Source of the DNA: a virus
Taxonomy: Duplodnaviria; Caudoviricetes
Length of the DNA: 64,000 nucleotides
Reading direction: 5' to 3' (one strand)
Virus record (IMG/VR): IMGVR_UViG_3300031993_000010
Location: 64,001-128,000 of that record
A program made the position numbers and the translations under genes. This document shows positions 42,391-57,925 of this stretch, piece after piece; position 1 is the first letter of the stretch, and every line of letters begins with the position of its first letter. Under the pieces are notes generated by a model, which was not told the origin of the DNA, ran no database searches, and saw nothing but the letters and a program-made list of their open reading frames with translations.

Positions 42391-42411
42391 AAATCAAAAA
42401 ACAATAACATT

Positions 42412-43014: not shown

Positions 43015-43073
43015 TATATTTGCAGTGTACTTTTGAAAATTGGGGTATATTTATAATTAAACGAAATGTTGCA

Positions 43074-43181: not shown

Positions 43182-43244
43182 CCCCAACATATTTTCCCCC
43201 TTTTTGACAGCCTGACGTTCCCCAAGACATCAGGCATTTTTTTT
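43153..43244 (+). terminator. terminator/antiterminator pair
   Basis: CGTCAGGCTG (43153-62) pairs CAGCCTGACG (43208-17); competing stem 43210-43235 followed by A-T8. Confidence 0.75.
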
Positions 43245-43257
43245 GGGATTTTTAAGG

Positions 43258-43305
43258 AAAAAAATTTGGCGGTTAGAAAAAAAAGTCTTACCTTTGCAAA
43301 CGTAA
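43258..43305 (+). promoter_or_regulatory. class A promoter
   Basis: AAAATTTGG ... TACCTTTG CAAACGTAA. Confidence 0.7.
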
Positions 43306-43350
43306 ACGAGAGAACTTTGACATATTAGGCAATCATACAAATAGGAAAAC

Positions 43351-43425
43351 GGGGATGTAGCGTAGGTGGTAATTGCGCGGGTGACTGAAAATCACCAGGC
43401 ACTTGTTCAACTCAAGTCGTCCCCA
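43351..43425 (+). tRNA. tRNA-Phe(GAA)
   Basis: GGTGA-CTGAAAA-TCACC; cloverleaf. Confidence 0.85.
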
Positions 43426-43430
43426 CAAAT

Positions 43431-43514
43431 GGGTAGGTATACCGTAATTGGTAGCGGGCCTGACTGTAAATCAGGTGTCTAACGACTCTGGGGGTTCAAG
43501 TCCCTCCCTGCCCA
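43431..43514 (+). tRNA. tRNA-Tyr(GTA)
   Basis: CCTGA-CTGTAAA-TCAGG; long variable arm. Confidence 0.9.
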
Positions 43515-43521
43515 CAATAAT

Positions 43522-43605
43522 GCCAGAGCGCCAAAGTTGGAGAGTTGGAACTGACTGTAAATCAGTCGCCTACGGGCTTAGTAGGTTCGAATCCTACCTC
43601 TGACA
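43522..43605 (+). tRNA. tRNA-Tyr(GTA)
   Basis: ACTGA-CTGTAAA-TCAGT. Confidence 0.88.
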
Positions 43606-43648
43606 CAACAGACATTTTTTTTTTTCACAAATTAAAAATAAAGGAACA

Positions 43649-44077
43649 ATGAAAATCTACTTTGCGGCAAGTCTTTCGGAAGACAAGAGAAAATTCATGT
43701 ACGAGGCGGTGAAGAGGCTGCGTGACATGGGGCACACGGTGTACGCCCCCATAGAGCATGTCGTTGAACATGCGTGGGAGTGGCCGAACAACGAATGGGG
43801 ACTGCAGGTCTTCCGCAACGACGTCAATGCGATAAACGATTCCGAGTTCGTGGTTGTGCTGAGTTGGGGAAGGCTCGAGACGAGTGCGGGCACCACATGG
43901 GAACAGGGATACGCCTACGGAATAGGAAAGAAGGTAATTCTTGTGGAGATGACCGACAACGTTCAGAGCCTCATGGTGGCAAACGGGAGGTTCGCAACCG
44001 TCAAGGGATTGGAAGGCCTGTACCAATACGACTTTTCCAGAATGGAACCTCTCAGGTCACAGACAGAACAGAAATAG
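43649..44077 (+). CDS. nucleoside 2-deoxyribosyltransferase family protein
   Basis: IYFAAS, DVNAINDSE, SAGTTWEQGYAYGIGKKV. Confidence 0.85.
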   Translation: MKIYFAASLSEDKRKFMYEAVKRLRDMGHTVYAPIEHVVEHAWEWPNNEWGLQVFRNDVNAINDSEFVVVLSWGRLETSAGTTWEQGYAYGIGKKVILVEMTDNVQSLMVANGRFATVKGLEGLYQYDFSRMEPLRSQTEQK

Positions 44078-44081
44078 AAAC

Positions 44082-44155
44082 GCAGGAATAGCTCAGTTGG
44101 CTTAGAGCACGACCCTTCCAAGGTCGAGATGTGGGTTTGGCTCCCATTGCCTGCT
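44082..44155 (+). tRNA. tRNA-Gly(TCC)
   Basis: CGACC-CTTCCAA-GGTCG; atypical T-loop. Confidence 0.8.
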
Positions 44156-44162
44156 CAAACAT

Positions 44163-44233
44163 AGGTCGTTGGTGTAACGGTAACATGGCTGTCTCCAAAA
44201 CAGTTGATGGAGGTTCGAGTCCTTCACGGCCTG
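44163..44233 (+). tRNA. tRNA-Trp(CCA)
   Basis: GCTGT-CTCCAAA-ACAGT. Confidence 0.9.
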
Positions 44234-44245
44234 CAAGACACACAT

Positions 44246-44318
44246 GGTGTTCGTAGTTCAATGGTGGAACGCCGCCCTGTGGAGGCGGATGGTGTCAGTT
44301 CGAGTCTGACCGAACACC
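44246..44318 (+). tRNA. tRNA-His(GTG)
   Basis: CCGCC-CTGTGGA-GGCGG; G-1:C73. Confidence 0.9.
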
Positions 44319-44340
44319 CTATTTATAAAATATAAGGTAT

Positions 44341-45087
44341 ATGAAAATGATAAATTTGGTGAAGAACAAAATAAGGAAAGCCGTCAGGGAAGTGTTGAAC
44401 GAGAATGTTGTCGGATACCCGATGCACTTCAGGACAATATACGATGACATAGGAGACGGACTCCTGATAAACGAGGGTCTGATAAAAACCTATCCATTGT
44501 CGTATGTACAGAAATACTTTGACAGACGATATGTGTTCGACATACGTGAGAAATACTTCAACGACAACGATTGGAAGGTCATCCTCGTACTGCCGTCAAA
44601 ATCCGATAAAGCGCAGGAGATTACCGATGTCTTGAACAGGTTTGGATATTATCTTGGCTACAAGGAAGAGAATGACAGGGGGCTTTGCCTTCAGTTCGAG
44701 CCTAAATTCCAGAACAAGTTCACAGGACAGCAAATGAAAGAAGTCGGGTGCAAATACCTGATACATGTTTCCCCGATGTACAATCAGGAAAAGATAATGG
44801 CAAACGGGTTGTGCCCCACAAGTAGAAACGGCGAGTTCAGTTATCCGAACAGGATATACTTATTCCTTGATACTGTGTCGGACAGGGAGTTGGAAAGCAT
44901 GGTAAGCAGACTTTCCGCCTCGAACAAGAGCAAGGGAAACGACGGCAGGTATTGCGTCTTCAACGTAAGCCTTGAAGGTCTTGAGGAACACACGTTTAAC
45001 CTTGACTTCAACATGGACAACGCTGTCTTCACCGAGGAAAACATCCCCCCGACAAACCTGCAATTGGTGAAAATCCTCAATGTTTAA
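44341..45087 (+). CDS. ART/KptA(Tpt1)-like domain protein, paralog of 56043..56828
   Basis: HVSP...I...GL.P...YPNRIYL...FTEENIPP.NL. Confidence 0.55.
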   Translation: MKMINLVKNKIRKAVREVLNENVVGYPMHFRTIYDDIGDGLLINEGLIKTYPLSYVQKYFDRRYVFDIREKYFNDNDWKVILVLPSKSDKAQEITDVLNRFGYYLGYKEENDRGLCLQFEPKFQNKFTGQQMKEVGCKYLIHVSPMYNQEKIMANGLCPTSRNGEFSYPNRIYLFLDTVSDRELESMVSRLSASNKSKGNDGRYCVFNVSLEGLEEHTFNLDFNMDNAVFTEENIPPTNLQLVKILNV

Positions 45088-45099
45088 CACTTTTTAACA

Positions 45100-45147
45100 A
45101 AAAAGATTTGGCCAATTCAAAAAATGGTAGTATCTTTGCAAACGTAA
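45100..45147 (+). promoter_or_regulatory. class A promoter
   Basis: AAAAAGATTTGG ... TATCTTTG CAAACGTAA. Confidence 0.7.
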
Positions 45148-45269
45148 ACAAAACAGAGATAGAAAAAAATTCCGAGAAAGTTGAAATTTGCAAGAAAAAA
45201 TAGTATATTTGCATTGTCTGATTGGTTCATGATAGATGACATCCCGCCATTCAGATAACAGTGGCGGAA

Positions 45270-45343
45270 GCCGGGTAGCTCAAGGGTAGAGCGTTGCCCC
45301 GCATTGCGAGGAAGAGAGTGCAGGTTCGAATCCTGTCCCGGTG
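45270..45343 (+). ncRNA. tRNA-like RNA with irregular anticodon arm
   Basis: Intact D arm (TAGCTCAAGGGTAGAGC) and T arm; no 5-bp/7-nt anticodon arm. Confidence 0.6.
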
Positions 45344-45691
45344 CCGAGACACGTAATGTGTACAGTACTTTGACATATTGGTTAGAGGTTAAAAACGGAC
45401 AGATGAGCCGCCAACGGACGGTTCGGAAGTCCACAAGACAAGAAAGTTCGTTCCTTGACAATAGGCATAAGAGGGCTTATCCTCGCACTGCGAGGATTGT
45501 AAGTACCCGAGGTTCCCGCTTTTATTTTTGCGCGATAACAGGCGATTGTTGGGGAATTGACATAGGACTGATGTGGGAGAGATACCCTATTCAGCCCCCA
45601 AAATGGGACATCAGGGCGTTTGGCGGTGACGATGCACCCTTAACATAAAGGGTAGCGGCAGGCACGACTTTTTTGCAGGTGTTCCGAATAT

Positions 45692-45778
45692 GGGAGACAT
45701 ACAGCAAACCATCTTTGAATTTCATAAAACAGTTTTTAAGTGGTTTACAAACAGTCCAAAATGCCCGTCCGTCTCCTG
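45692..45778 (+). ncRNA. ACAGCAA-motif RNA, free copy 1
   Basis: GGGAGAC-ATACAGCAA...GTCTCCTG. Confidence 0.65.
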
Positions 45779-45847
45779 ACACCATAGCGGTTTTCACGAG
45801 TTTCCCGCTTTGCCCTAAAAACTCTTTATATCGATAATCGGTTATAT

Positions 45848-45913
45848 GGAAGCCGTACAGCAAACTTTTCAAGCAACAAACTTTTAATTTGTACACGCTA
45901 ACCTTGGCTTCTG
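45848..45913 (+). ncRNA. ACAGCAA-motif RNA, free copy 2
   Basis: GGAAGCC-GTACAGCAA...GGCTTCTG. Confidence 0.7.
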
Positions 45914-46118
45914 TCGATTATACTAAACTTAATCTAAGCCTGAAAGGTGGGCGTTATCTATAATACCTTCCACAAGGCGTAAGCCAGGTGTGGATATGGG
46001 AAGGGTAACAAATATCTCTAATGGGGTTTGGTAAGCTTTATCTTGGTGAAGAAATTAAGTGCCAAGGGGTCCCAGATACAAGTGACTACGGAAATCTTGT
46101 AAGGTTTAGATTTATTTT

Positions 46119-46190
46119 GCTTCCTTAGTATAGTGGTTATTACTCCGGATTTGTAACCCGGAAACACTCGTTCAAATCGAGTAGGAAGCT
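46119..46190 (+). tRNA. tRNA-Thr(TGT)
   Basis: CCGGA-TTTGTAA-CCCGG. Confidence 0.8.
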
Positions 46191-46287
46191 CACCTGAAAA
46201 CATTTTGTTTAAATTTTTAGTGTACTTCATTGGAGTTGTTCGTGTTCCCCCCTACTCCGCGTGTAAATAAAAAGAAGGGAACAATCT

Positions 46288-46416
46288 CGGAGGATAGTTT
46301 AACGGCAAAACGGAGGCTTGCATCAAAATGGTTTTCTGCATACGGAATACCAACAGCAACAGCAACCAATACGCAACAGGGTGCCTCAGTTACAGGTTCG
46401 AATCCTGTTCTTCCGA
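46288..46416 (+). ncRNA. tRNA scaffold carrying a permuted ACAGCAA motif in the anticodon arm
   Basis: Acceptor CGGAGGA/TCTTCCG, D and T arms; insert GGTTTTCTG-catac-GGAATACC-AACAGCAA. Confidence 0.7.
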
Positions 46417-46554
46417 CAAAGGCCGAAGCCCACACGCACATGCTTAATGAGTCTCAACGTGCGTTCCGAAAGGAATAGGACCATAGAGTTGGAAAGACCT
46501 GTGCACGGGTGTGAAAACGTTTCCAATAGACGGGGAAGTGGGGTCGGTTGCTTT

Positions 46555-46627
46555 GGGAACATAGCTCAGCAGGTAGAGCGGCACCCTGTTAAGGTGATGG
46601 TCGTAGGTTCGAACCCTACTGTTCCCG
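46555..46627 (+). tRNA. tRNA-Asn(GTT)
   Basis: CACC-CTGTTAA-GGTG. Confidence 0.88.
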
Positions 46628-46662
46628 CATGATTTTTTGTCATAGTTCATAGTTTTTTTAAA

Positions 46663-46718
46663 GGAAGACGTACAGCAAACACAAAAGTTTTTATGGAAAA
46701 GACGAAAATTGTCTTCTG
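46663..46718 (+). ncRNA. ACAGCAA-motif RNA, free copy 3
   Basis: GGAAGAC-GTACAGCAA...GTCTTCTG. Confidence 0.7.
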
Positions 46719-46724
46719 AAAAAT

Positions 46725-46795
46725 GGCCCTTTAGTTTAGCGGTAGAACGAATGGTTTTCAGCCATTAGAGCGGGGTTCGACTCCCCGATGGGCTA
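46725..46795 (+). tRNA. tRNA-Glu(TTC)
   Basis: AATGG-TTTTCAG-CCATT. Confidence 0.85.
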
Positions 46796-46877
46796 CAATG
46801 TACTAAAAGGACATCGGATTTTGACTTGTTTTCAAAGTTCGAAAGTATTTATAATAGCAGTTAAATTGTTGATAGTT

Positions 46878-47804
46878 ATGATTTCAGATGAATTGTTACA
46901 AGAACATCTCATTGTTGAGTTTTTGTTTGCGGATAGTTTGAACCATGATTTTTTCATTACTGAGAATTATGGTAAAATACATGGAATATACGATATTATA
47001 AAAACTATAGGGGATAAATTCCTTAAAGGGGAACGGAGTGTGACTGTAGGCATACCCGATGTGGGTGAAGTTGAGATTGTTTTTCAATATTCCGAAGGTT
47101 GGACGAACAGGAATGTCGTTGCATACTGTGACTACAATGGTGCCAAGCCACGTATTATAGTTAATGTTGAAAGTGTAGACAGGAATGCGGCGGTGGAGGA
47201 AGTTAAAAGAATAATTGCCCACGAAATCATACATGCAAGGCATGAAAAGGGTGTTGAGGAAAGGTATGGCGAAGAAACGTCCATAGACAATTTTGAGAAG
47301 GGGTATAGGGCTGCAGTGCTTTTTTCAAAAGACAGTGACCCTTTGGTCAGTAGTTTTGGGTACACTCTCTACTATCTGTCAAAATCGGAACAAAACGCTT
47401 TTATAGGACAGACGTGCGTTGAAATTGAAAACATGGGTAACGAAATCAAAGACCACAAATCTGCGATGGAGTGTATCAAGAAAACCGACGCATATGCAAG
47501 AATAGTTACCTTGGGGAAAAGGATAGAGTTGCTGAAGTCAGCAAATGAGGAGGATATGCAGAATTTGGTCGATGGATATATACATTTAACAGGAATCAAG
47601 ACAACTCCAAGTAAATTACTTAAATATGTGGAGAATGAATACCGTAAGTTTGTGGACAAATTTTACAGACAGGTTTCGAAAATGGCTTATGAACAGTATG
47701 AAAAGCATACCGCACAGCGTTTCGAACCCAAACTGAAGGATGGCCTGTACGAAGACCTGTGCAAAACAAGGGATTTTATGGAACGTCTTGATAATGTCAG
47801 GTAA
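46878..47804 (+). CDS. hypothetical protein with HExxH motif
   Basis: AHEIIH...EQNAF; TATTTATA upstream. Confidence 0.65.
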   Translation: MISDELLQEHLIVEFLFADSLNHDFFITENYGKIHGIYDIIKTIGDKFLKGERSVTVGIPDVGEVEIVFQYSEGWTNRNVVAYCDYNGAKPRIIVNVESVDRNAAVEEVKRIIAHEIIHARHEKGVEERYGEETSIDNFEKGYRAAVLFSKDSDPLVSSFGYTLYYLSKSEQNAFIGQTCVEIENMGNEIKDHKSAMECIKKTDAYARIVTLGKRIELLKSANEEDMQNLVDGYIHLTGIKTTPSKLLKYVENEYRKFVDKFYRQVSKMAYEQYEKHTAQRFEPKLKDGLYEDLCKTRDFMERLDNVR

Positions 47805-47845
47805 CGGTTGTTTTCAAAGTTCGAAAGTAGTTATATTTAGATATA

Positions 47846-48250
47846 ATGAAAACCGATATGACAAAGACAAGTTTAATTTTAATGTTATGGGAACTTCCCC
47901 AACTCCTCCTTGGACGTATGATTGCCAAAAAGACAGGTGCCCATGCACACACTGTCGACGGTGTGCGTGTATATGTGACCAACAAGTATGACGGAATGTC
48001 GATGGGTGACACGTTGTTTGTCAACCCCAACTCGTTCTACGGGACTTGGATGGTCAAGCATGAGTTCGGTCATATAATCCAAAGCAGGATATTGGGTTGG
48101 CTCTACATCCCATTGATACTCATACCGAGCATTGTATGGAAAAAGGCTACCGAGGCAATTGACAGGGTCTTCCCCTCAGAGGAGGCTGACATCAATTTCT
48201 TCAGTCAGCAGTTCTATACCGAACAATGGGCAAATTGGTTGATACTTTAA
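47846..48250 (+). CDS. membrane protein with HExxH motif
   Basis: KHEFGH..QS..LGWLY...FYTEQWAN. Confidence 0.65.
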   Translation: MKTDMTKTSLILMLWELPQLLLGRMIAKKTGAHAHTVDGVRVYVTNKYDGMSMGDTLFVNPNSFYGTWMVKHEFGHIIQSRILGWLYIPLILIPSIVWKKATEAIDRVFPSEEADINFFSQQFYTEQWANWLIL

Positions 48251-48489
48251 GACGGATAGATACCCAAACTCCAACAGCCTAATGGAGGTGATAACCACCT
48301 TGTCGGCTGTTATAGGGGCTAAAGACAGTCAAGGCGAACATCCTGCGAGAAAACAGGAACATGGTTTAAATAGTACCTTACTGTCAATGCGTTCCAAAGG
48401 GTTGTGGTGTTGGATATGTACGGCTACGGCATGGGGTGAGATTGTAGCAAGCACCCTGCAACACTGCATATATCCGTTTTTTATTATAT

Positions 48490-48577
48490 GGAGAGGTGGC
48501 CGAGTGGCTGAAGGCACAGGTTTGCTAAACCTGCAAACCCGATAAGGGTTTCGGGGGTTCGAATCCCTCCCTCTCCG
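48490..48577 (+). tRNA. tRNA-Ser(GCT)
   Basis: CAGGT-TTGCTAA-ACCTG; long variable arm. Confidence 0.92.
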
Positions 48578-48587
48578 CGCAAGTTTT

Positions 48588-48660
48588 GGGAATGTAGCTC
48601 AGTTATGGTAGAGCACCGCGTAACGGCGGGACCGCATGGGTTCGAACCCCATCATTTCTA
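48588..48660 (+). ncRNA. tRNA-like RNA with shortened anticodon arm
   Basis: CCGC-GTAACG-GCGG; normal D and T arms. Confidence 0.6.
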
Positions 48661-48879
48661 CTCTATCTAAATCCCTGTCTCGAAAGAGACCAATAGTAAA
48701 CAAAGATTTTCCTGACAAAAGTGGGGCAGAGTAGTCGGGACGGCAGATGCAGCCGTGATGAAATAATGGTGGTAAGCGAGACGTGCATCAATCCACCAAT
48801 TTTTAAAGATAGGTTGTAAAATCCGCAAGGGTACACCGTAAACTGTGTTGACCTGTCTTTTTTGACATAGTGCATAGAC

Positions 48880-49014
48880 GTGGACTGTGACGGGGAATGG
48901 GTAAACCCGCGCCGTAAAATAGAGGAACGACTGGAAGTGGTCGGTAAAAGTCGGACGGTGGACCGAAAGGTTTTGACACGTCAGTCACTGTGGGTTCGAG
49001 TCCCATCGGTGCGC
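48880..49014 (+). ncRNA. tRNA-like RNA with expanded anticodon/variable region
   Basis: Leu/Ser-type D arm, T arm GTGGG-TTCGAGT-CCCAT. Confidence 0.5.
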
Positions 49015-49102
49015 GGATATGCACTTTTTTTACGGAAAAATTGTAACTTTTGAAAAATACGTTATATTTATAAAAGAATAAGGTAACAGAAGAAATAAGA
49101 AA

Positions 49103-49240
49103 ATGGTAACGGCTTTAATCATATTATCTGTATTGGCAATCCTTGCACAGTGCTGCATTGTGCTCAGGATGCCCGTCGCATGTGCAGACGCCGACAGACA
49201 AGACGACCCCAAAGCCGTGGAGGAAATAGGCAAGGAATAG
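49103..49240 (+). CDS. small membrane protein (45 aa)
   Basis: MVTALIILSVLAILAQCC...; TATTTATA upstream. Confidence 0.5.
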   Translation: MVTALIILSVLAILAQCCIVLRMPVACADADRQDDPKAVEEIGKE

Positions 49241-49319
49241 ACACATTTTTCACTCTCATTAATATGCGTGGTTCCTTGTCAGACACAGGGAACCACAATT
49301 TTTTTAAGGGAAATTAAGA

Positions 49320-49367
49320 AAAAAGATTTGGTCGGAAGGAAAAAAGTTGTTACCTTTGCAAACGTAA
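49320..49367 (+). promoter_or_regulatory. class A promoter
   Basis: AAAAAGATTTGG ... TACCTTTG CAAACGTAA. Confidence 0.7.
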
Positions 49368-49376
49368 AAGATACAG

Positions 49377-49453
49377 TGCGGGATGGAGAAGTTGGTCATC
49401 TCACGTGGCTCATAACCACGAAATCGGGGGTTCGAATCCCTCTCCCGCTACCA
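49377..49453 (+). tRNA. tRNA-fMet(CAT), initiator-like
   Basis: CGTGG-CTCATAA-CCACG; 1:72 mismatch; encoded CCA. Confidence 0.85.
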
Positions 49454-49555
49454 AAAAATTCCGAAAGAAGCCCTGCCAGGCTTTCGAGTAGGTCGCACGG
49501 AAACTGATTAGACGACGGCGTGGCAGCGCCTTCGGATTGAAAGGCTGACGTGTAA

Positions 49556-49628
49556 GACGAGGTGGTGTAATCGGTAAGCACACTTGCTATGGTTGCAAGA
49601 AGCGTATGGTTCAAATCCTACTCTCGTG
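49556..49628 (+). ncRNA. degenerate tRNA-like RNA (TGG in loop but A33)
   Basis: CTTGC-TATGGTT-GCAAG; bulged T stem. Confidence 0.5.
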
Positions 49629-49680
49629 TCGTAACGCAAAATGCGTAAAAGTACTTTGACATGTTGGTTAGAGGTTAGAT

Positions 49681-49762
49681 GCTCAGGTGGCGAAATTGGT
49701 AGACGCGCAACGTTGAGGTCGTTGTGGGGAAACCCGTGGGGGTTCAAGTCCCCCCTTGAGCA
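49681..49762 (+). tRNA. tRNA-Leu(GAG)
   Basis: CAACG-TTGAGGT-CGTTG. Confidence 0.9.
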
Positions 49763-49772
49763 CAAGTTTTTT

Positions 49773-49845
49773 CTCCCTGTAGTTCAGTGGATAGTAACGA
49801 GAGATTCCTAATCTCTAAACCGAGGTTCGAGTCCTCGTGGGGAGA
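49773..49845 (+). tRNA. tRNA-Arg(CCT)
   Basis: AGAGA-TTCCTAA-TCTCT. Confidence 0.88.
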
Positions 49846-49854
49846 CAAAAAGCA

Positions 49855-49980
49855 GACCATGTGGCGCTGAAATACACCTGACAGGAAAGCGCCTGAAAGC
49901 AGAAATGCGAAGTCGAGTCCAAAGATGGTGTTCACGGACGAGGTAATGGCGAGGTGTCGGTTCAAGTCCGACCATGGTCT
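49855..49980 (+). ncRNA. tRNA-like RNA with multiple insertions
   Basis: Acceptor GACCATG/CATGGTC, T arm GTCGG-TTCAAGT-CCGAC. Confidence 0.55.
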
Positions 49981-49982
49981 CA

Positions 49983-50306
49983 AATTCCAATTGTTGATAT
50001 ACGTTTGAACGTATGTAAGACGAGCGTTCGAATCGCTCCATCTCCACAAAATTACAAAGTGCCCAGGGCACGAAAGCATTGCAGATAATGATGCTAATCC
50101 TGAACCCAAATCGAAAAGGGGTCGTGTTGCAAGTCATACTTTGTAGGATAAGGATAACATTGGGGATGTCTTGGTTTCGATTGCATGTCAAGTAGGATGT
50201 AAGGAGATTGGGATTAGTTGTTTTAAACGGCAACACAAACTATCGTTATGCAATGGCTGCCTGATAGGGCACCCATGTGCGAGTTGGCCACGAACTAAAT
50301 CGTGGC
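49983..50306 (+). ncRNA. ssrA: circularly permuted (two-piece) tmRNA
   Basis: T arm + CATCTCC-A (50022-46) precede GGGGATG..TTCGA (50162); G3:U70; tag GNTNYRYAMAA* at 50229-64; outer ends approximate. Confidence 0.85.
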
Positions 50307-50313
50307 AAATTTT

Positions 50314-50400
50314 GGACGCGTGGTGTAATTGGTTCAGCATACGGCACTGTCACTGCCGAGGGAGCGTAAGCCATTGCGGGTTCGAGTCCCGTCGTGTCCG
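50314..50400 (+). tRNA. tRNA-Asp(GTC) with long variable arm
   Basis: CGGCA-CTGTCAC-TGCCG. Confidence 0.85.
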
Positions 50401-50496
50401 CTAAAATATAAGTAACGGTTCAACTTTTTATTAGTTTGCTTGTAAACACTTGTTTTACTTTTTATTCCACAATATATGATATAAAAAGAAGCGACT

Positions 50497-51594
50497 ATGG
50501 AGTATAACGAAGACAATTTTAGAAATGCAAAACCATTTGATTTATTTGAATTCACATGTGAAAATTGTGGATGTACTTTTACGCAAAACAAAAGATACAT
50601 TGTAAAATGTGGGGGTAAAATACCACGTTATTGTTCAAGTAAATGCCGAGGGGAAGCAAAGAAGACGTTAATTAAAGTGCATTGTGCGGAATGTGGAAAA
50701 GAAAAGTTTGTTCGGAAACACGAATACGAAACAAGTAAGACAGGTAATTTCTTTTGTTCTGAATTACATGCTGCGATGTTTAATAATAAAGGACGTAAGC
50801 ATAAAAATGAAACGAAAAGATTATTAAGTGAAAAAGAATTTAATATTTTAAATAAAAATGTTGAATACATAGAAAATGATACAGTTTGTCCAATATGTGG
50901 TAATAGAAAAACTTCTATGTCCGGTGTTTGTAAAAAGTGTTCAGACAGGGCAAATTATGAAGAATATGAAAACAAAACATTGGGTGAAGTGCTTGGTGAA
51001 AACACTACGTATACAACTAAGTTGTGTTCCACAATAAGAAAACACGCAAGAAGAAAGATGGAGGAAGGGTCAGTTGAAAAGGTATGTGCTTATTGCGAGA
51101 ACCATGAATATGATGAAATATTAGAAGTACACCACATAAAAGGTATACTAACATTTAACCGTGAAACAAAAATAAAGGAAATAAATGACTACAAGAACCT
51201 TTTATGGTTATGCCCAAATCACCATCAAATGTTGGAAAAAGGGTTAATAAGTATAGAAGATATTGACTTGGAAAAGCATCAAAGTGTAGAAGAATCGGAT
51301 GGGTTCTCCCACAAAGAAGTTAAGGACATTATCAAGTCTAATATAGAAAAAAGAATATCTGCAGGTTATTCATACAAAACCCCAAAAAAGGAACAATTGA
51401 CAAAAGAAGAGGTTGCATTTAATCAGCGTAGATGTGAATGGCCTTCAAAAGAAGAATTGTTGGGTTTAATAAAAACAATTTCATTTGAAGCAATTGGAAG
51501 GCGGTATGGGGTTACGGGAAACACGGTGAAGAAATGGTGTAAACGTTATGGATTGCCAAGTAGAAAATGTGATATAAAAGAGATAACAGAATAA
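50497..51594 (+). CDS. HNH endonuclease with zinc fingers
   Basis: CAYC...LEVHHI...NDYKNLLWLCPNHH; C-terminal HTH; AT-rich. Confidence 0.82.
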   Translation: MEYNEDNFRNAKPFDLFEFTCENCGCTFTQNKRYIVKCGGKIPRYCSSKCRGEAKKTLIKVHCAECGKEKFVRKHEYETSKTGNFFCSELHAAMFNNKGRKHKNETKRLLSEKEFNILNKNVEYIENDTVCPICGNRKTSMSGVCKKCSDRANYEEYENKTLGEVLGENTTYTTKLCSTIRKHARRKMEEGSVEKVCAYCENHEYDEILEVHHIKGILTFNRETKIKEINDYKNLLWLCPNHHQMLEKGLISIEDIDLEKHQSVEESDGFSHKEVKDIIKSNIEKRISAGYSYKTPKKEQLTKEEVAFNQRRCEWPSKEELLGLIKTISFEAIGRRYGVTGNTVKKWCKRYGLPSRKCDIKEITE

Positions 51595-51609
51595 TGAATA
51601 AAACCACTT

Positions 51610-51693
51610 GCTTTGGTGGGGGAATTGGTAGACCCGTCAGATTTAAGCTCTGGTGCCCGAAAGGGCGTGTGGGTTCGAGTCCCACCCGAAGCA
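51610..51693 (+). tRNA. tRNA-Leu(TAA)
   Basis: TCAGA-TTTAAGC-TCTGG. Confidence 0.9.
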
Positions 51694-51787
51694 CGGATAT
51701 TCAACAAAATGCCCGTAGAGTTTCTTGGCGTTTCTTCTTGTCATTCGGGCTGCCCGTTGCAAGGGCTGAAAACATGAAACCCAATAT

Positions 51788-51869
51788 CCCATCGTGGCGT
51801 AATTGGCAGCCGCGCCCGTCTCAAAAGCGGGTTCCGAAAGGAGTATAGGTTCAAGTCCTATCGGTGGGA
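51788..51869 (+). tRNA. tRNA-Leu(CAA)
   Basis: CCCGT-CTCAAAA-GCGGG. Confidence 0.88.
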
Positions 51870-52056
51870 CTATAAGTAAAATGGAAGTTGCATTTCGGGA
51901 ATGCGGAGACCTCCGACCGCAATACAAATGAGGAGGTGGAACAAAGCCCGCATGCAAGACAGCTGTACTTCCGTATGTACTTATAACCTTATCCAAGGCG
52001 GCATTTTTTCCACTTCAAGTGTTTCATAGCATTTTTTATCACCTTGCCGCCTTCAA

Positions 52057-52141
52057 GTCTCCGTAGCTCAGTTGGTTTGCGAAAGCTTAGAGCATCGCCC
52101 TTTTAAGGCGGGAGTCCTGGGTTCGAGTCCCAGCGGGGACA
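52057..52141 (+). tRNA. tRNA-Lys(TTT) with enlarged D-loop
   Basis: TCGCC-CTTTTAA-GGCGG; D-loop insert GCGAAAGC. Confidence 0.85.
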
Positions 52142-52183
52142 CAACTTTTCAAATCCGTATCTATTTATAGTAAAACAAACATT

Positions 52184-52855
52184 ATGGATATGGAAATTTG
52201 GGAAACAACCGACATGAAGTCTGTTCGTCCCGACTTGAAGTTCAAGATAATGCGTACAGATTTCGCCAAACTTTTCAAGAACATGGGCTACTCGTTCTTT
52301 GAGAACGGGCTGTACAACCTGAACATCATAGGCATACGGTCTGACAACAAGAACAAGGTGACCAACAAGTACGACGACGTGCTTGTGCTGATATACAACA
52401 ACGGCAACGGAAAGCAGAAGATAATGTACCCCATCACGACCGAGCCTGGTCTCTATTATATGACAACTGAACTCGGCAATGCGAAGGGAACTGCGATACT
52501 CGTTCCCGGGCAGTACAAGGGCTGTTGGGCGATTGGAAAGCATAACGGAAAGTACAAGGCGTTGGTTCAGGTGAAGCCCGTCAAGGTCTACAGGGACAAG
52601 AACAAGGACAAGGTCTACGACATGAACCCCAAGACTGTCGACAATGGCGTATTCGGCATAAACATACACCGAAGCAACGAGAATTGGACACGTGACACTG
52701 TCGACATGTACAGTGCAGGATGTCAGGTGTTCGCAAACCCGAACTATTTCAAGTCTTTCATCTCAATCTGTGAGAAGCAGGCGGGGCTGTACGGAAACTC
52801 GTTCACCTACACCCTCATCAACGAGAAGGACTTGGATTTCGGTCAGACAGTTTAA
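52184..52855 (+). CDS. putative peptidoglycan-active enzyme (L,D-transpeptidase-like)
   Basis: GINIHR...SAGCQV His/Cys motif; TTEPG, YRDKNKD. Confidence 0.55.
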   Translation: MDMEIWETTDMKSVRPDLKFKIMRTDFAKLFKNMGYSFFENGLYNLNIIGIRSDNKNKVTNKYDDVLVLIYNNGNGKQKIMYPITTEPGLYYMTTELGNAKGTAILVPGQYKGCWAIGKHNGKYKALVQVKPVKVYRDKNKDKVYDMNPKTVDNGVFGINIHRSNENWTRDTVDMYSAGCQVFANPNYFKSFISICEKQAGLYGNSFTYTLINEKDLDFGQTV

Positions 52856-53013
52856 AGAGACAGTTTTTCTGAAAGAGTGATTATACCATTGCCCCGACAC
52901 GCTTGTCGTGGAGGACAGGGACGCCTGTCCATAAACGTCGGCGAACCAGGTCGGATGTTCGCGGCATGAAGCGGCTCCTCAGCGTGGAAGCAAGAGCGTT
53001 TTCTGAGGTAATC

Positions 53014-53175
53014 CGAGTAGTAGCCCAGTTGGTCTAAGGCACTGCATTTGGTTAGGGAGATGCTACCTCCTATTGAGAATAAAGCGATTTCGCAAATGGT
53101 TGGGTACAACCCTGGGGTTCGATTCCCTTGTGCGAAACGATGCAGAAATCGTGTGTTCGAATCACACCTACTCGA
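53014..53175 (+). tRNA. tRNA-Pro(TGG) interrupted by an 87-nt insert
   Basis: Removing 53052-53138 gives CTGCA-TTTGGGA-TGCAG; C1:G72, A73. Confidence 0.75.
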
Positions 53176-53336
53176 CTGATTATCAGATAGTTTCAAATAA
53201 AAACCCTTTCGTAAAGGAAGGTGCCGCCTGGTTGGCCAATCAGGTCTGTGGTTGGAGGTAAAGCATGTTAACGGCTCATGACCGTTTCTGTTCCACTATG
53301 AGTGACGTGATGCGCAGCGTAAAAAGCCTCCTAAAT

Positions 53337-53407
53337 CTCCCTATAGTTCAATGGAAGAACATAAGTCTACGGAACTTACGATTGGGGTTCGAGTCCCTAT
53401 GGGGAGA
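53337..53407 (+). tRNA. tRNA-Arg(ACG)
   Basis: TAAGT-CTACGGA-ACTTA. Confidence 0.88.
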
Positions 53408-53622
53408 CGATAAGGTGCATAAAAAGGTTAGAGATTGGATGTTGGAGTGAAACTACTTACTCCCTCGTCAGCCATCCATTAGAACATGACCGACCAAACG
53501 GGGAAACTCGACCTGAACAGCACAGTGCTGCAATTTAGCCTTCAATGGTAGTTGAAGGGATGGGTTGAATTTGGAATATAGTACCCAGGGCACGGCAAGA
53601 ACAGTTCAATATGCATCTTTAA

Positions 53623-53696
53623 GGTCCTTTAGCTCAATTGGTCAGAGCAACTGACTCATAATCAGTAGGTTGGGAGTTCAAATCTCTCAAGGACCA
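53623..53696 (+). tRNA. tRNA-CAT (Ile2 or elongator Met)
   Basis: ACTGA-CTCATAA-TCAGT. Confidence 0.85.
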
Positions 53697-53748
53697 CAAG
53701 CAGTATAAGGTTCTCCACGGGTCTGCTTTAACAAAACCGTGGCAGTCA

Positions 53749-53823
53749 GCTCCTGTAGCTCAGTTGGTTCAGAGCATCGCCCTTACAAGGCGGGGGTCAC
53801 AAGTTCGAGTCTTGTCGGGAGCA
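53749..53823 (+). tRNA. tRNA-Val(TAC)
   Basis: TCGCC-CTTACAA-GGCGG. Confidence 0.9.
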
Positions 53824-53930
53824 CAATGGAGCAAAGCGCAAATGTCGTGGTGACAGGGACTTGCTGCAAGTTTTGCGACATTCACTACAGAGTACACCGT
53901 CACCAAGCCCCGGAGCTCTATGGGGCAGAT

Positions 53931-54058
53931 GCTAATGTAACTCAGAATGGTTTAGAGTGCTGGGGGAGGGAAAGAGCCTGATACCCAATCCCGGATGTGG
54001 AGTAAAGGACAAGGTTAAGTACGACTCCTTTTCGGTGGTTCAAATCCACCCGTTAGCA
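53931..54058 (+). ncRNA. tRNA-like RNA with expanded anticodon and variable arms
   Basis: Acceptor GCTAATG/CGTTAGC; D and T arms intact. Confidence 0.6.
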
Positions 54059-54174
54059 CGTGAAAAGCCGTAGGGATTGATTTAGGAGGTAATTTCCAAC
54101 CTTGTTCGGCAACCAACCTTGAGCAGCGCGCGTTAACAAGCTTGCAAGGAGGACAAAAGGAAAAAACCAAATTT

Positions 54175-54249
54175 CGGTTCGTAGCTCAGTTGGCTCAGAG
54201 CACTACACTGATAATGTAGGGGTCGGTGGTTCGAATCCACCCGAACCGA
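54175..54249 (+). tRNA. tRNA-Ile(GAT)
   Basis: CTACA-CTGATAA-TGTAG. Confidence 0.92.
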
Positions 54250-54707
54250 CAAAGCAACTTGCAAATACGTATCGTGCAAGTTCGCCTACACTTGGGGTCA
54301 GACCCACCCTGCTTGGGATAGGGTCAGGTATTTTCAGCCTGATAATTCTACTTAACGCCTGAGCGAACGTCTGTTACAGGAATGTCCACTTCATTGGTGC
54401 GATGGAGAGTAGATTAAGTCGCATTGGTGTTGGAACACGGATACATTGCCGAATTTTTGGTGGGTTTTCGGTTCTGTATTCGTGATGAAGGGCAGATAAG
54501 ATAAGTACAGACCCACTAAACGTTGCAGTAAGCGGCGGCGACCAAGAACATGAGATTGGGCTGACATACGGTTCGGTCCCATGGACAAAAAACTCCAAGC
54601 AGTTAGTCTGCCGCAGGTTGCCATTACGGTTTAGGGTTTTATACTGAGCAACCTTTCCGTCGTTTCTGTGATGTTTCCCTGAATCTCCTTTTCAAATTAT
54701 TATATAG

Positions 54708-54780
54708 GGGCCGCTGCCTCCAATGGTACAGGAACGGCTTTGCAAGCCGTCATTTCTCAGTTCGAATCTGAGGCGGTCCA
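54708..54780 (+). tRNA. tRNA-Ala(TGC)
   Basis: ACGGC-TTTGCAA-GCCGT; G3:U70; atypical D arm. Confidence 0.8.
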
Positions 54781-54789
54781 CAAAAACAC

Positions 54790-54845
54790 GGAAGTCGTAC
54801 AGCAAAACAACAAGAGTATAGTGGAATTACTTCAATTGACTTCTG
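54790..54845 (+). ncRNA. ACAGCAA-motif RNA, free copy 4
   Basis: GGAAGTC-GTACAGCAA...GACTTCTG. Confidence 0.7.
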
Positions 54846-54850
54846 TATAA

Positions 54851-54924
54851 TGTCCTGTAGTTCAGTTGATTAGAACGTTGGATTTTGGTTCCAAAGGTCG
54901 CCGGTTTGAACCCGGCCAGGACTA
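54851..54924 (+). tRNA. tRNA-Gln(TTG)
   Basis: TTGGA-TTTTGGT-TCCAA. Confidence 0.85.
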
Positions 54925-54929
54925 CACAA

Positions 54930-55050
54930 CGGGAAATAGTTTAATGGTAGAACGGGGGTAGCGAAAAAGATGGTTTTCTGTAGATGGAATACCAACAGCA
55001 ACCAAATGCGTCCCAAACCCTAAGTGGAGGTTCGAGTCCTCCTTTCCTGT
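54930..55050 (+). ncRNA. tRNA scaffold carrying a permuted ACAGCAA motif
   Basis: Acceptor CGGGAAA/TTTCCTG; insert GGTTTTCTG-tagat-GGAATACC-AACAGCAA. Confidence 0.7.
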
Positions 55051-55058
55051 CTAAATAT

Positions 55059-55181
55059 GGTCGGAGTCGTCTAGTGGATAGGACACGTAAAACAAAAGAC
55101 TTCTGCTATGGAAATCGTACAGCAACCAATTTGAAATGCTTTCTGGTAGCCGTAACACAGGTTCGAATCCTGTCTCCGACC
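55059..55181 (+). ncRNA. tRNA scaffold carrying a permuted ACAGCAA motif
   Basis: Acceptor (G)GTCGGAG/CTCCGAC(C); insert GACTTCTG-ctat-GGAAATC-GTACAGCAA. Confidence 0.7.
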
Positions 55182-55416
55182 CACAATGGAAGTACGAACC
55201 ACTGAGTATAAGCGGGGCAATTCGCAATGCCGTACTAGTAAAAGGCACGGTGGAGTAGTCGGGAGTAGAGTATTCCCTCAGCCCGCTGAAAGGTGTTGGT
55301 GACCGTGAGGTGCCATAAGGTGCAACGCAACACAGGGTAAAACCGCAAGCGGTAATGCAATCGACGTAAAGCCGTCGTTTCCTGAGTCCGTGGCTCGTCA
55401 ACTTACTTCCTTTTTT

Positions 55417-55488
55417 CTTTCTATAGTTTAATGGATAAAACGAAGGTCTTCTAAACCTTAAATCCCAGTTCGATTCTGGGTGGAAAGA
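55417..55488 (+). tRNA. tRNA-Arg(TCT)
   Basis: AAGGT-CTTCTAA-ACCTT. Confidence 0.88.
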
Positions 55489-55499
55489 CATTAAACAAC

Positions 55500-55922
55500 A
55501 TGATTATGAGTAACAAAGTTAGAAATGATTGTATTTGCATAAATTGTGGTAAAGTTTTTTATCCACAGAAAAATACAACAGGTAAATATTGCAGCAACAA
55601 ATGTCAACAGGAATATCAATCTCATCAAAAATATCTCAATTATTTGGCCGACCCTTCAAAGTATATGAAGGGATGTAATATGAAATGGATAAAGAAACAC
55701 ATACTGCAAGAACAGGGATATAAATGCGCTATATGTAATATGCCTAATAGTTGGAATGGTAAGGTATTGATATTCATATTAGACCATATTGATGGACATG
55801 CCCATAATAACAATAGGTCAAACCTTAGGCTTATATGTCCTAATTGCGATTCTCAATTAGACACTTATAAAAGCAAAAACAAGAAAAGCGATAGGATTTA
55901 TTACCACTTTCATCATAGATAA
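55500..55922 (+). CDS. HNH endonuclease
   Basis: CAIC...LDHIDG...NN..SNLRLICPNC. Confidence 0.88.
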   Translation: MIMSNKVRNDCICINCGKVFYPQKNTTGKYCSNKCQQEYQSHQKYLNYLADPSKYMKGCNMKWIKKHILQEQGYKCAICNMPNSWNGKVLIFILDHIDGHAHNNNRSNLRLICPNCDSQLDTYKSKNKKSDRIYYHFHHR

Positions 55923-55928
55923 TGAGAT

Positions 55929-56003
55929 GACAGGGTACCAGAGAGGATTAATGGCCAAGTCTGCAAAACTTCGGATTCGTGGGTTCGAATCCCACCCCTG
56001 TCT
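55929..56003 (+). tRNA. tRNA-Cys(GCA)
   Basis: AAGT-CTGCAAA-ACTT; U73. Confidence 0.85.
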
Positions 56004-56042
56004 CAAACAACTATTAGTATATTTATATAAAAAAACATAGCA

Positions 56043-56828
56043 ATGGAAGAAAAAAATATATTGAAGGAACACATTAGGAACATAGTCAAGCAAACGATTC
56101 GTACCTTGTGCGGTACTGAGCCTGTTTTTCCATCACAACCCTTAAAGCGCTATCCGTCAAAATTGGAGATTGCGATGAAGAAAGACCTGAACGAAGGTCT
56201 GATAAGGACATATCCGATGGAATGGGTTGAGAAATACCTTTCCACAAGGTTCAACTCGGATTTTGTCAAGGGTGGTGTGGATGACGAGGTTATGCATTTT
56301 TGGTTCATACTGAAGAAGGGCAGCAAGTCAATTGAACCGCTGAAGCAGAAGATGGATTCATTCGGTTATTTCTGTTCGGCTGAGGACAACGTTACCGAAG
56401 GCGTGTATCTGCAGTTCGAGCCGAAGTATGATGAATACAAGACAGGTGAGGAATTTTCAAGTAGAGATAATGACGAGATATTCTTCTATCACGTTACACC
56501 ATTGTTTTTAGCAAATAAAATAAAAGTCAGCGGTTTGGTACCGAAATCCAAAAATGAGTTTCTCAATTATCCCGACCGTGTTTACCTTACCTTGGCTGAT
56601 GACGGAAAAGAGACTGCATATGAAATGGCTGACATGCTGTATACAAATTCAGGCAACAAAATGAACGATGGCAAATACTGTTTAATAGGTGTTACATTGA
56701 ACGGTTTGGAAAAGGCTAAGTTCTACCCCGACTGGAATGTGTCACACGCCACTGCCTATTTCACTTACGACAACATACCGCCACAGAACCTGAAGTTTCT
56801 GGAAACCTTCGAGGCTCAGAAGGCATAG
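56043..56828 (+). CDS. ART/KptA(Tpt1)-like domain protein, paralog of 44341..45087
   Basis: YHVTP...I...GLVP...YPDRVYL...FTYDNIPPQNL. Confidence 0.55.
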   Translation: MEEKNILKEHIRNIVKQTIRTLCGTEPVFPSQPLKRYPSKLEIAMKKDLNEGLIRTYPMEWVEKYLSTRFNSDFVKGGVDDEVMHFWFILKKGSKSIEPLKQKMDSFGYFCSAEDNVTEGVYLQFEPKYDEYKTGEEFSSRDNDEIFFYHVTPLFLANKIKVSGLVPKSKNEFLNYPDRVYLTLADDGKETAYEMADMLYTNSGNKMNDGKYCLIGVTLNGLEKAKFYPDWNVSHATAYFTYDNIPPQNLKFLETFEAQKA

Positions 56829-56830
56829 AC

Positions 56831-56903
56831 GGCTCCGTAGCCCAACGGAAGAGGCGGAACACTTAGGATGTTCACAGTATAGGTTCGAATCCTATCGGGG
56901 CTA
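56831..56903 (+). tRNA. tRNA-Leu(TAG), short variable loop
   Basis: GAACA-CTTAGGA-TGTTC. Confidence 0.8.
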
Positions 56904-57043
56904 CTTGACTTTAGGAAACCGTGTACATGTTGACAGAAAATTGAAAAAACGTGTAAAGCCATCCTGTATACATGTGGATAACACGTTTTTTAAATGTAAA
57001 ATATCTTGTATAATATTGAATCTTAATGCTATATAAAAATTAT

Positions 57044-57210
57044 ACTGTGTTGGAATACACTTTTAGAGGTATTTACAACGAATATTGTTTTACAATTGAT
57101 TTTATCGCACTGTGTTGGAATACACTTTTAGAGGTATTTACAACGGTTATCTACCTTGCCTTTGAGCGACTTGTACTGTGTTGGAATACAGTTGAGGGGT
57201 TATTTATGAC
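57044..57210 (+). CRISPR. CRISPR mini-array: two identical and one degenerate 36-bp repeat, two spacers, no cas genes in window
   Basis: ACTGTGTTGGAATACACTTTTAGAGGTATTTACAAC at 57044 and 57109; degenerate copy at 57175; spacers of 29 and 30 bp; AT-rich leader. Confidence 0.8.
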
Positions 57211-57246
57211 CAACTGACAATTAATAAATAAACAAATAAAATAAAC

Positions 57247-57843
57247 ATGAAGAGACTTTTGAGTTTGATTGCCGTTGCGACAGTTGCTGTCGTGATGGTT
57301 GCTTGCCACAGAAGCAAGCCCGTTGAGCCGACCGTTGTCGGTTATGACTATTACACTGAGGTGTGCGGTGACTATGACTACATTGCATCGCAGTACGACA
57401 CTTTCTACTTCTATGAGGCTGACGTGCTGTACAACATCTGCTTCAATGAAGAGGGTGACCGTTACATCACCTCAATCACCACTGTTTTCCAGATTGGTGA
57501 CACCTGCATCAGAATCGTGCACAGGGAAGGTGCCTATGACCAAGCCCCCGACACATTGGTTGACGCAGGCTATTGGATGGAATGCATGCCTTGCGACCCA
57601 CGTGTCGACGTGACCCTTGAGGAGGCGGTCGAATGTGCGATTGACGAGGAACTGCCCACGAGAGCCATGACTTTCAGACGCATACTTGCACCCCCATTCC
57701 CCGAGTGCGGACAGTACATATTCGGTGTAGGTCTGCTGTTCATTGACGGATGCAACGACGTTGTTGATGTTGAATACGACTATCCCGAGTTCGTCGAAGG
57801 ATACCTCTCGGACACTCTCATCGAGAATGAAGAAAACCTCTAA
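57247..57843 (+). CDS. acidic lipoprotein
   Basis: Signal peptide with MVAC lipobox. Confidence 0.7.
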   Translation: MKRLLSLIAVATVAVVMVACHRSKPVEPTVVGYDYYTEVCGDYDYIASQYDTFYFYEADVLYNICFNEEGDRYITSITTVFQIGDTCIRIVHREGAYDQAPDTLVDAGYWMECMPCDPRVDVTLEEAVECAIDEELPTRAMTFRRILAPPFPECGQYIFGVGLLFIDGCNDVVDVEYDYPEFVEGYLSDTLIENEENL

Positions 57844-57858
57844 CCTATAAACCAACGT

Positions 57859-57893: not shown

Positions 57894-57925
57894 GTTTGTG
57901 TCGGTTTTTATAGTATATTTGCATC

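Follow-up and report, generated by a model that had tools for sequence, protein, structure and literature searches.

Ro60 and its Y RNAs form a conserved RNA-surveillance system whose function in bacteria and phages is poorly understood. Ro60 binds Y RNAs, and the bacterial and phage YrlA RNAs, which are encoded beside Ro60, combine a Ro60-binding stem with a tRNA-like domain (PMC4201824; PMC12135203). In the topology of YrlA, the acceptor stem of the tRNA-like domain is closed by a loop and the two ends of the RNA lie in the Ro60-binding stem (Chen et al. 2014, PMC4201824), and in Thermus phage phiLo Ro60 is found with Yrl1 and Yrl2 (PMC12135203). A further point of comparison is the Class I RNAs of Dictyostelium, which are approximately 60 nt long and have a covarying stem of approximately 6 bp that joins their ends, CCUUACAGCAA after the 5' strand of this stem, a variable remainder and a CUGU 3' end (Kjellin et al. 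2021, PMC7919456). Here, we analyze a family of small RNAs in a 64,000-nt stretch of phage DNA (the window), which comprises bases 64001–128000 of the 227-kb IMG/VR record IMGVR_UViG_3300031993_000010 (estimated completeness 62%). The RNAs share a ‘handle’, a short helix joined to the single-stranded motif UACAGCAA, and the same phage encodes a protein of the DUF2828 family that is predicted to fold like Ro60. From gene linkage and sequence comparison, we consider it probable that the handle RNAs are Y-RNA-like partners of this Ro60-like protein, with tRNA-mimic cargo.

Eight handle copies were found in the phage, four of them free-standing, three inside tRNA bodies and one at the start of the gene for the Ro60-shaped protein. 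The handle is a helix of 7–10 bp, the purine-rich strand of which (GGAAGNC) runs 3' into single-stranded (G)UACAGCAA(A/C). The free-standing copies read (A/U)N-GGAAGNC-(G)UACAGCAAAC, followed by 28–62 variable AU-rich nt and (U)GNCUUCUG(A/U), and their flanks pair. All four lie on the plus strand of the window and are matched by R2, one of two covariance models (R1 and R2) used here. Free RNA 1 (45692–45778) has the stem GGGAGAC/GTCTCCT, then aUACAGCAA, a 62-nt variable region and a 3' CUGA; it scores 36.6 bits at 45690–45780, and an RNA-library contig from a relative of the phage spans 45585–45782. Free RNA 2, at 45848–45913 with the stem GGAAGCCG/TGGCTTCT (GGAAGCC/GGCTTCT), scores 46.7 bits at 45846–45915. 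Free RNA 3, at 46663–46718 with the stem GGAAGACG/TGTCTTCT (GGAAGAC/GTCTTCT), scores 56.4 bits at 46661–46720 and ends 6 nt from tRNA-Glu, and free RNA 4, at 54790–54845 with the stem GGAAGTCG/TGACTTCT (GGAAGTC/GACTTCT), scores 52.2 bits at 54788–54847 and has tRNA-Ala 8 nt upstream and tRNA-Gln 5 nt downstream. ACAGCAA occurs 22 times in the window compared with 9.1 expected, a number that was reached in none of 100 shuffles. The original prediction, made from the letters of the window, had listed seven copies of a stem with ACAGCAA; all seven are present, the motif is far beyond chance, and the stems of the four free copies read as it had proposed.

The free form recurs in other phages. Pattern scans of viral contigs recovered it from the tRNA arrays of other large phage contigs (99–373 kb), and R1, for which only two copies of the window and two of unrelated contigs were used, found 31 family members in 13 sources. 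Across these members the closing helix is 96.7% paired, six of its eight pairs have changes on both sides (39 cells), and its covariation score is 0.482 compared with 0.154 when columns are shuffled and 0.13 or less when partners are slid, which bears out the stem covariation first read from the window copies. The family is invariant in UACAGCAA, which is single-stranded, and in the opening GG and the closing C-Y-G of the helix. Many copies are closely spaced to tRNAs: seven of 30 end 5–6 nt before a tRNA, and six start 4–8 nt after one. In 844 kb of control DNA (unrelated viral loci) R2 had zero matches and the best R1 score was 19.7 bits. A pattern scan of 185,579 bacterial and archaeal species, one genome each, matched three contigs, of which two look like phage DNA with tRNA arrays and the third like a chance match in coding sequence; none of the three placed the module beside a defence gene. 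Pattern scans for the embedded form (TTCTG..GGAA..ACAGCAAC and GGAATACCAACAGCAA) gave, among the matches listed, only chance matches in coding repeats. The searchable literature yielded neither a description of the RNA family nor a function for DUF2828.

The proposed protein partner is a 454-amino-acid DUF2828+DUF7788 (vWA) protein encoded at G000:C1:137633–138997, approximately 9.6 kb past the end of the window. Its AlphaFold model (24-sequence alignment) has a mean predicted local distance difference test score of 84 and a predicted template modelling score of 0.81. With this model, the best 13 Foldseek matches are all Ro60/TROVE (Xenopus, human, Deinococcus and Thermus phage phiLo; E values 1.6e-8 to 4e-5), and VIA-align against Ro60/TROVE gives Z 12.4–16.9 over 362–391 of the 454 residues, whereas vWA-only matches stop at approximately Z 10. 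On the predicted structure, the protein is of the Ro60-type fold, a helical-repeat ring with a C-terminal vWA domain. DUF2828 is above the Pfam cut-off in two of four RNA-holding phage records, and a third record has a weaker match (22.6 bits) backed by DUF7788.

RNA and gene are linked at several scales. The eighth handle copy (G000:C1:137567–137642, the same as L393 926–1005; R2 26.6 bits) abuts the start codon of the DUF2828 gene; it reads AUGGUACUCGUA-ACAGCAA, 51 nt, AUGAGUACUG, and the G of the ATG is the first base of the 3' stem strand. In L415 (4946–5008) and L421 (4911–4981) the AUG of the gene likewise lies inside the 3' strand of the upstream copy, and this overlap suggests translational autoregulation, in which the protein may control its own translation through the start-codon handle copy. 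To assess linkage more broadly, 65 viral loci were fetched by the protein alone, reaching 5 kb to each side of the gene. R1 has 36 matches in 19 of these loci, all on the strand of the gene and most within approximately 500 nt of its end or approximately 150 nt of its start, and R2 has 62 matches in 27 loci; R1 is the cleaner test, because R2 was partly trained on seven of the 65. Six contigs that were found through the RNA pattern alone also encode a DUF2828 gene, and in the record G002 the RNAs begin approximately 40 nt after the stop of that gene. The neighbourhood of a Ro60 gene, a hallmark of Y RNAs and YrlA that had been suggested as a check, is hence seen as a Ro60-fold gene in the same genome, a start-codon copy and copies in 19–27 of the 65 loci, compared with none in the controls. 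RtcB, another gene whose co-occurrence check had been proposed, is encoded in G002 and was not found in the other three of the four incomplete phage records.

The variable regions, or cargos, are often tRNA-like. In 16 of 44 cargos there is a hairpin with ≥4 bp and a 7-nt loop of the anticodon or T-loop type, compared with a mean of 2.9 and a maximum of 8 in 200 shuffles. The loop of tRNA-Lys(UUU), CUUUUAA, occurs six times on six different stems, once in the window, where the hairpin CAAA-CUUUUAA-UUUG of free RNA 2 (45877–45891) copies it; other loops are of the His (UUGUGGU), Asn (CUGUUAA), Ser and Thr types, and several members have a GGUUCGAAUCC T arm in the cargo. These loops indicate that the handle is constant and the cargo exchangeable.

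In the three embedded copies the same helix is closed by a loop of 3–4 nt, has one mismatch at the same helix position and is followed by ACAGCAA. They read TGGTTTTCTG-cata-CGGAATACCA-ACAGCAA (46329–46359), TGGTTTTCTG-taga-TGGAATACCA-ACAGCAA (54971–55001) and GACTTCTG-cta-TGGAAATC-gt-ACAGCAA (55098–55125), and the tRNA bodies around them are all on the plus strand. Body 1 (46288–46416) matches the Rfam tRNA model at 51.6 bits with a 62-nt insertion in the anticodon loop and has C1:G72 and A73; by enumeration of junctions, its insert is 58 nt long (approximately 46320–46377), with the handle at 46329–46352 and ACAGCAA at 46353–46359, and the restored loop is UU(A/G)GGGU, of the Pro type. Body 2 (54930–55050; Rfam tRNA 46.7 bits, insert in the anticodon loop) has U73 and a 50-nt insert (54960–55009 or 54961–55010), with the handle at 54971–54994 and ACAGCAA at 54995–55001, and a restored loop (A/G)UCCCAA of the Gly CCC type. 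Body 3 (55059–55181) was found by ARAGORN with introns allowed, and the Rfam tRNA model reports none there. The junctions of bodies 1 and 2 are ambiguous, whereas body 3 has a single solution, a 50-nt insert (55088–55137) that splits the anticodon stem at 28/29 and holds the handle hairpin at 55098–55116 and ACAGCAA at 55119–55125, after which the intact loop UUCUGGU (CUG) follows. Because this loop is intact, the insert does not replace the anticodon loop. The original prediction had placed all three inserts where the anticodon loop should be, which agrees with the Rfam tRNA matches of bodies 1 and 2 and has to be amended for body 3. Brute-force deletion combined with ARAGORN was too permissive for fixing junctions or anticodons, and single-sequence folds of the three bodies were equivocal (z −0.6 to −2.2).

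An ortholog of body 3 in another phage (L377 7473) has the same D arm, an insert at 29/30 and the loop UUUGGGU; its split stem, read by eye, carries two double changes relative to body 3, C-G to G-C and U-A to C-G. Further tRNA-joined handles are found at L377 10153 and in two genes of L349. L427, L429 and L432 have a tRNA-like RNA 140 nt before the gene, with ACAGCAA directly after an anticodon-type stem, and hairpin-closed handles with tRNA-like parts adjoin the gene in these three loci and in L449 and L450. The geometry is constant across all versions, a helix with its purine-rich strand running 3' into UACAGCAA. Two details of the embedded copies stand apart. A 6-nt tandem duplication in body 1 (ACAGCAACAGCAA, 46353–46365) gives a second ACAGCAA at 46359–46365, and a tRNA-embedded copy on the reverse strand of L349 (12692–12709) also has two motif copies (ACAGCAAtttaACAGCAA). 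In body 3 (window 55110–55146) the handle strand GGAAAUCG pairs either with the upstream GACUUCUG, as the hairpin, or, further downstream, with UGCUUUCU, the 5' half of the anticodon arm; the latter pairing scores 28.1 bits with R2 and may be an alternative fold or a coincidence.

The phage RNAs resemble YrlA and the Y RNAs in that they are small RNAs encoded beside a ring-plus-vWA protein of the Ro60 type, several per locus and in phages, and in some loci tied to RtcB. As in YrlA, a protein-binding stem, putative in the phage family, is combined with a tRNA-like module, seen here in three full tRNA bodies and in the 16 of 44 cargos compared with 2.9 in shuffles. They differ from YrlA in their partner, which belongs to the DUF2828+DUF7788 family and has no TROVE match, and in being shorter (55–90 nt) and more numerous, with a cargo that is often only an anticodon arm. 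The wiring of the tRNA-embedded copies is also reversed, with the acceptor ends open and the handle closed by a loop. The idea of the original prediction, a protein-binding module like the bacterial Y RNAs, is supported by the gene linkage and the tRNA-like domains, from which we infer the binding.

At E≤1 in window positions 42000–58000, Rfam gave no ribozyme, Y RNA, YrlA or riboswitch match for the copies, and only one Rfam model, that of the Dictyostelium Class I RNAs (RF01414), aligns with the free copies over their full length. Its scores are 27.6 (free RNA 3), 21.3 (free RNA 2) and 16.9 bits in the window and 25.0 and 23.8 bits in other phages, all below the threshold of 41.5, and the view that the module belongs to no named family holds up. 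As in Class I RNAs, the two ends of the phage RNAs are joined by a short covarying stem, UACAGCAA follows the 5' strand immediately (identity in 8 of the 11 letters of CCUUACAGCAA) and the remainder is variable and AU-rich, for a total of approximately 55–70 nt. The three letters before UACAGCAA differ, however, and one is missing in the phage RNAs. The Class I 3' end, CUG(U), is CUGU in two of the window copies and CUGA in the other two. The phage RNAs lie in tRNA operons, 4–8 nt from tRNAs, whereas Class I RNAs lie behind DUSE promoters, and the known Class I partner is the RRM protein Rnp1A, with no link to a Ro60-like protein on record. No RRM match (PF00076) was found in the four incomplete phage records. 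In a Protein Atlas look-up the DUF2828 clusters were viral only, with nothing on Dictyostelium. On these sequence features, the phage RNAs bear a striking resemblance to Class I RNAs, which is not membership.

As partners of a Ro60-like protein, the RNAs could work as follows. The ring-shaped DUF2828+vWA protein would recognise the handle, helix and UACAGCAA together, and the cargo would be exchangeable and imitate parts of tRNA: some RNAs would carry an anticodon stem-loop, others a T arm, and three genes here an entire tRNA body. With the helix formed by its two ends the RNA would be free-standing, and with the helix closed by a loop the module could be plugged into the anticodon arm of a tRNA. 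The RNAs would be transcribed within the tRNA operon and, because many copies lie 4–8 nt from a tRNA end, may be released by the normal tRNA-processing cuts. The resulting particle would present tRNA look-alikes to tRNA-acting enzymes (nucleases, repair ligases, PNPase) during infection, and the handle copy at the start codon would let the protein throttle its own translation.

Several observations weigh against such a partnership. The link between RNA and protein is genomic only; seven of the eight copies in this phage lie 19–28 kb from the DUF2828 gene, and 38 of the 65 gene loci have no copy by the narrow R1 and R2 models within 5 kb on each side. The handle, a helix with UACAGCAA, is unlike the Ro60-binding helix or the GNCGAAN0-1G motif of YrlA, and the Y_RNA and YrlA models (RF00019, RF02553) have no match at E≤1 in 42000–58000 or at E≤10 in 45600–46800. 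Pfam TROVE (PF05731) misses the protein in four records, though controls match, and a sequence-profile search of solved structures with the protein alignment found no Ro60. Exact removal of the three inserts, moreover, restores canonical tRNAs, in bodies 1 and 2 with acceptors that fit the anticodon, which is what an intron would look like.

The embedded modules could accordingly be short tRNA introns, in which case the 50–58-nt inserts would be excised and a ligase such as host RtcB would join the exons to give tRNA-Pro(GGG), tRNA-Gly(CCC) and tRNA-Gln(CUG), and the handle would be the recognition element for excision or a free Y-like RNA released by it. If so, they would add a new kind of tRNA intron to those of the bacterial world. 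As with tRNA introns, each insert is in the anticodon arm, and in all three bodies one precise deletion (58, 50 and 50 nt) is enough to give back an anticodon stem of 5 bp and a loop of 7 nt in which position 33 is U and position 37 a purine. Acceptor features fit the restored anticodons in body 1 (A73 and C1:G72 with GGG) and body 2 (U73 with CCC), the three anticodons complement those present in the array (UGG, UCC and UUG), the split stem keeps its pairing through the two double changes in L377 7473, and the related record G002 encodes RtcB. Non-canonical positions of tRNA introns are known in archaea. Yet the insert positions differ (28/29, 31–33 and 33–35) with the handle-to-junction distance fixed at neither side, no bulge-helix-bulge could be drawn at the junctions from sequence, and body 3 combines a His-like G-1:C73 acceptor with a Gln anticodon; its ortholog, in which acceptor and anticodon likewise do not match, has another anticodon (UGG). 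A protein-family search of the four phage records, all incomplete (18–73%), found no EndA-type endonuclease (PF01974). Between bodies 1 and 2 the handle insert is more conserved than the exons, and, unlike an intron, the same module also exists as free-standing genes. It also counts against splicing that we know of no bacterial or phage route that removes a 50-nt non-group-I insert. Group I introns themselves were rejected, the inserts being 50–58 nt long compared with a core (P3–P9) of usually >200 nt and RF00028 having no match in the window; the same model does match a true group I intron in the related phage L347 (57.7 bits). The RNA data are assembled Logan contigs, in which mature tRNAs are not expected. 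The sole RNA-library contig across an insert bridges 55057–55415 with the insert of body 3 present, a weak point against splicing as it could be precursor or DNA; no insert-skipping joint is listed among the Logan RNA contigs, and several coding stretches also have no cover, neither of which counts as evidence. On balance, we lean towards retention of the three inserts, each embedded copy then being a tRNA-shaped Y-like RNA, and consider splicing rather unlikely. A wider version strikes us as a long shot: the handle with UACAGCAA would be the address tag of a broad, undescribed branch of Ro60-type particles that includes the Dictyostelium Class I RNAs, and the embedded copies would be true introns in which the Ro60-like protein recognises the handle, the tRNA then being cut by a nuclease and resealed by an RtcB-type ligase. 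If this were true, it would amount to protein-guided tRNA splicing in bacteria and phages, with the handle RNA released as a product.

Other explanations dispense with the Ro60-like protein. The spacing of the copies (seven of 30 ending 5–6 nt before a tRNA 5' end, six starting 4–8 nt after a tRNA), together with the T arm beside the closing stem in some members, would suit an element that serves processing or stability in the tRNA operon; by resembling an acceptor stem, it would guide cleavage by RNase P or RNase Z or shield spacer RNAs from exonucleases. We regard this as very unlikely, given that it leaves unexplained the invariant single-stranded UACAGCAA, the loop-closed copies inside tRNAs, and the copies beside or on the Ro60-like gene, outside tRNA arrays, in 19–27 of the 65 loci. 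Alternatively, the RNAs could act on their own, as decoys or sponges against host anticodon nucleases or further RNases that cut single strands, with the Lys-, His- and Asn-type loops or UACAG as bait and no phage protein involved. tRNAs with Lys UUU, His and Asn anticodons are classic targets of anticodon nucleases, the CUUUUAA, UUGUGGU and CUGUUAA loops stand on covarying stems, and an abiF RNA motif lies in the tRNA array of a phage relative. But only about a third of the cargos are tRNA-arm-like while the handle is universal, and the scan of 185,579 prokaryote genomes, with its two phage-like contigs and one chance match, placed none beside a defence gene. Bait could equally be presented by a Ro60-like particle, with which the decoy idea is compatible rather than opposed; as an explanation in its own right we find it highly improbable. 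We give hardly any credence to a small self-cleaving ribozyme or to a base-pairing small RNA with ACAGCAA as its seed. Small ribozymes typically show circular permutation, the U·G wobble at the end of the helix recalls the P1 helix of group I introns, and the motif is single-stranded and invariant, as a seed would be; but no Rfam ribozyme family matches at E≤1, a catalytic core would need more than the one helix and 8 nt that are conserved, and the complement TTGCTGT is absent from the RNA region of the window. We also rejected a mini version of transfer-messenger RNA (tmRNA) or a small open reading frame starting from GCA (frames and stops are inconsistent between copies), a promoter reading of TATAT-GGAAG (the upstream sequence is unconserved within the phage and the stem covaries) and an AlaRS-type G3:U70 minihelix (the first two pairs are not kept).

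If the handle RNAs are indeed Y-RNA-like partners of the DUF2828 protein, they would represent a second, apparently much larger branch of the Ro60/Y RNA system, with another protein family that is annotated only as DUF2828, another and very simple handle, and tRNA-mimic cargo that can be interchanged, all found within the tRNA operons of large phages. They would show how nature grafts an RNA module into a tRNA scaffold, and would provide a concrete set of RNAs and a protein with which the use of tRNA look-alikes by phages in infection can be tested, as well as a lead on the unexplained Class I RNAs of Dictyostelium.

The DNA sequencing runs that contain the stretch of the window originate from cattle and goat gut, making this a rumen phage. 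A 364.7-kb contig carries an identical copy of one of its proteins, and a BLAST search of 50,697 phage records for close relatives matched conserved tRNAs only. The tRNA island extends over 43–57 kb of the window and consists of approximately 30 tRNA genes, a permuted tmRNA and a few homing-endonuclease genes; the open reading frames within the array encode homing endonucleases, a deoxyribosyltransferase or unknowns, and none is RNA-related. The tmRNA gene is circularly permuted (two-piece) and lies at 49989–50264 (RF04321, 65.3 bits). An HNH endonuclease gene and a small gene lie among the tRNA genes at 50497–51594 and 55500–55922; the small gene has weak, sub-threshold endonuclease VII and treble-clef matches, and both are probably homing elements. 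Three odd tRNA-like genes were seen at 45269–45345, 48588–48661 and 49556–49629, one with a 4-letter anticodon call (cgca), one with a 2-letter call (aa) and one found by Rfam only (40.2 bits).

Short inserts of another form are present in further tRNAs. The tRNA-Pro(UGG) at 53014–53175 has an 87-nt insert after the anticodon that holds its own T-arm-like minihelix, and on the reverse strand of L348 and L349, two other phages, tRNA-Ala, Ser and Arg have inserts of 65–96 nt that start with UACAG directly after the anticodon and include a GUUCGAAUC-type T arm. These form a second kind of short tRNA insert, which is possibly related. Between tRNA body 3 and tRNA-Arg, a GC-rich structured region of approximately 225 nt (55188–55410) has the closing pair GGAAGUA/UACUUCC, CGAACC directly after the 5' strand, comparable to the CGAA motif of Y RNAs, and a U run at its end. 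It is covered by an RNA-library contig; its fold z-score is only −1.6, and it has no Rfam match and no homolog among approximately 460 fetched loci. In the tRNA array of another phage (L347, 18975–19012, minus strand), an abiF RNA motif (RF03085) scores 50.1 bits, above threshold, and adjoins tRNA genes near the group I intron in a tRNA (RF00028, 57.7 bits).

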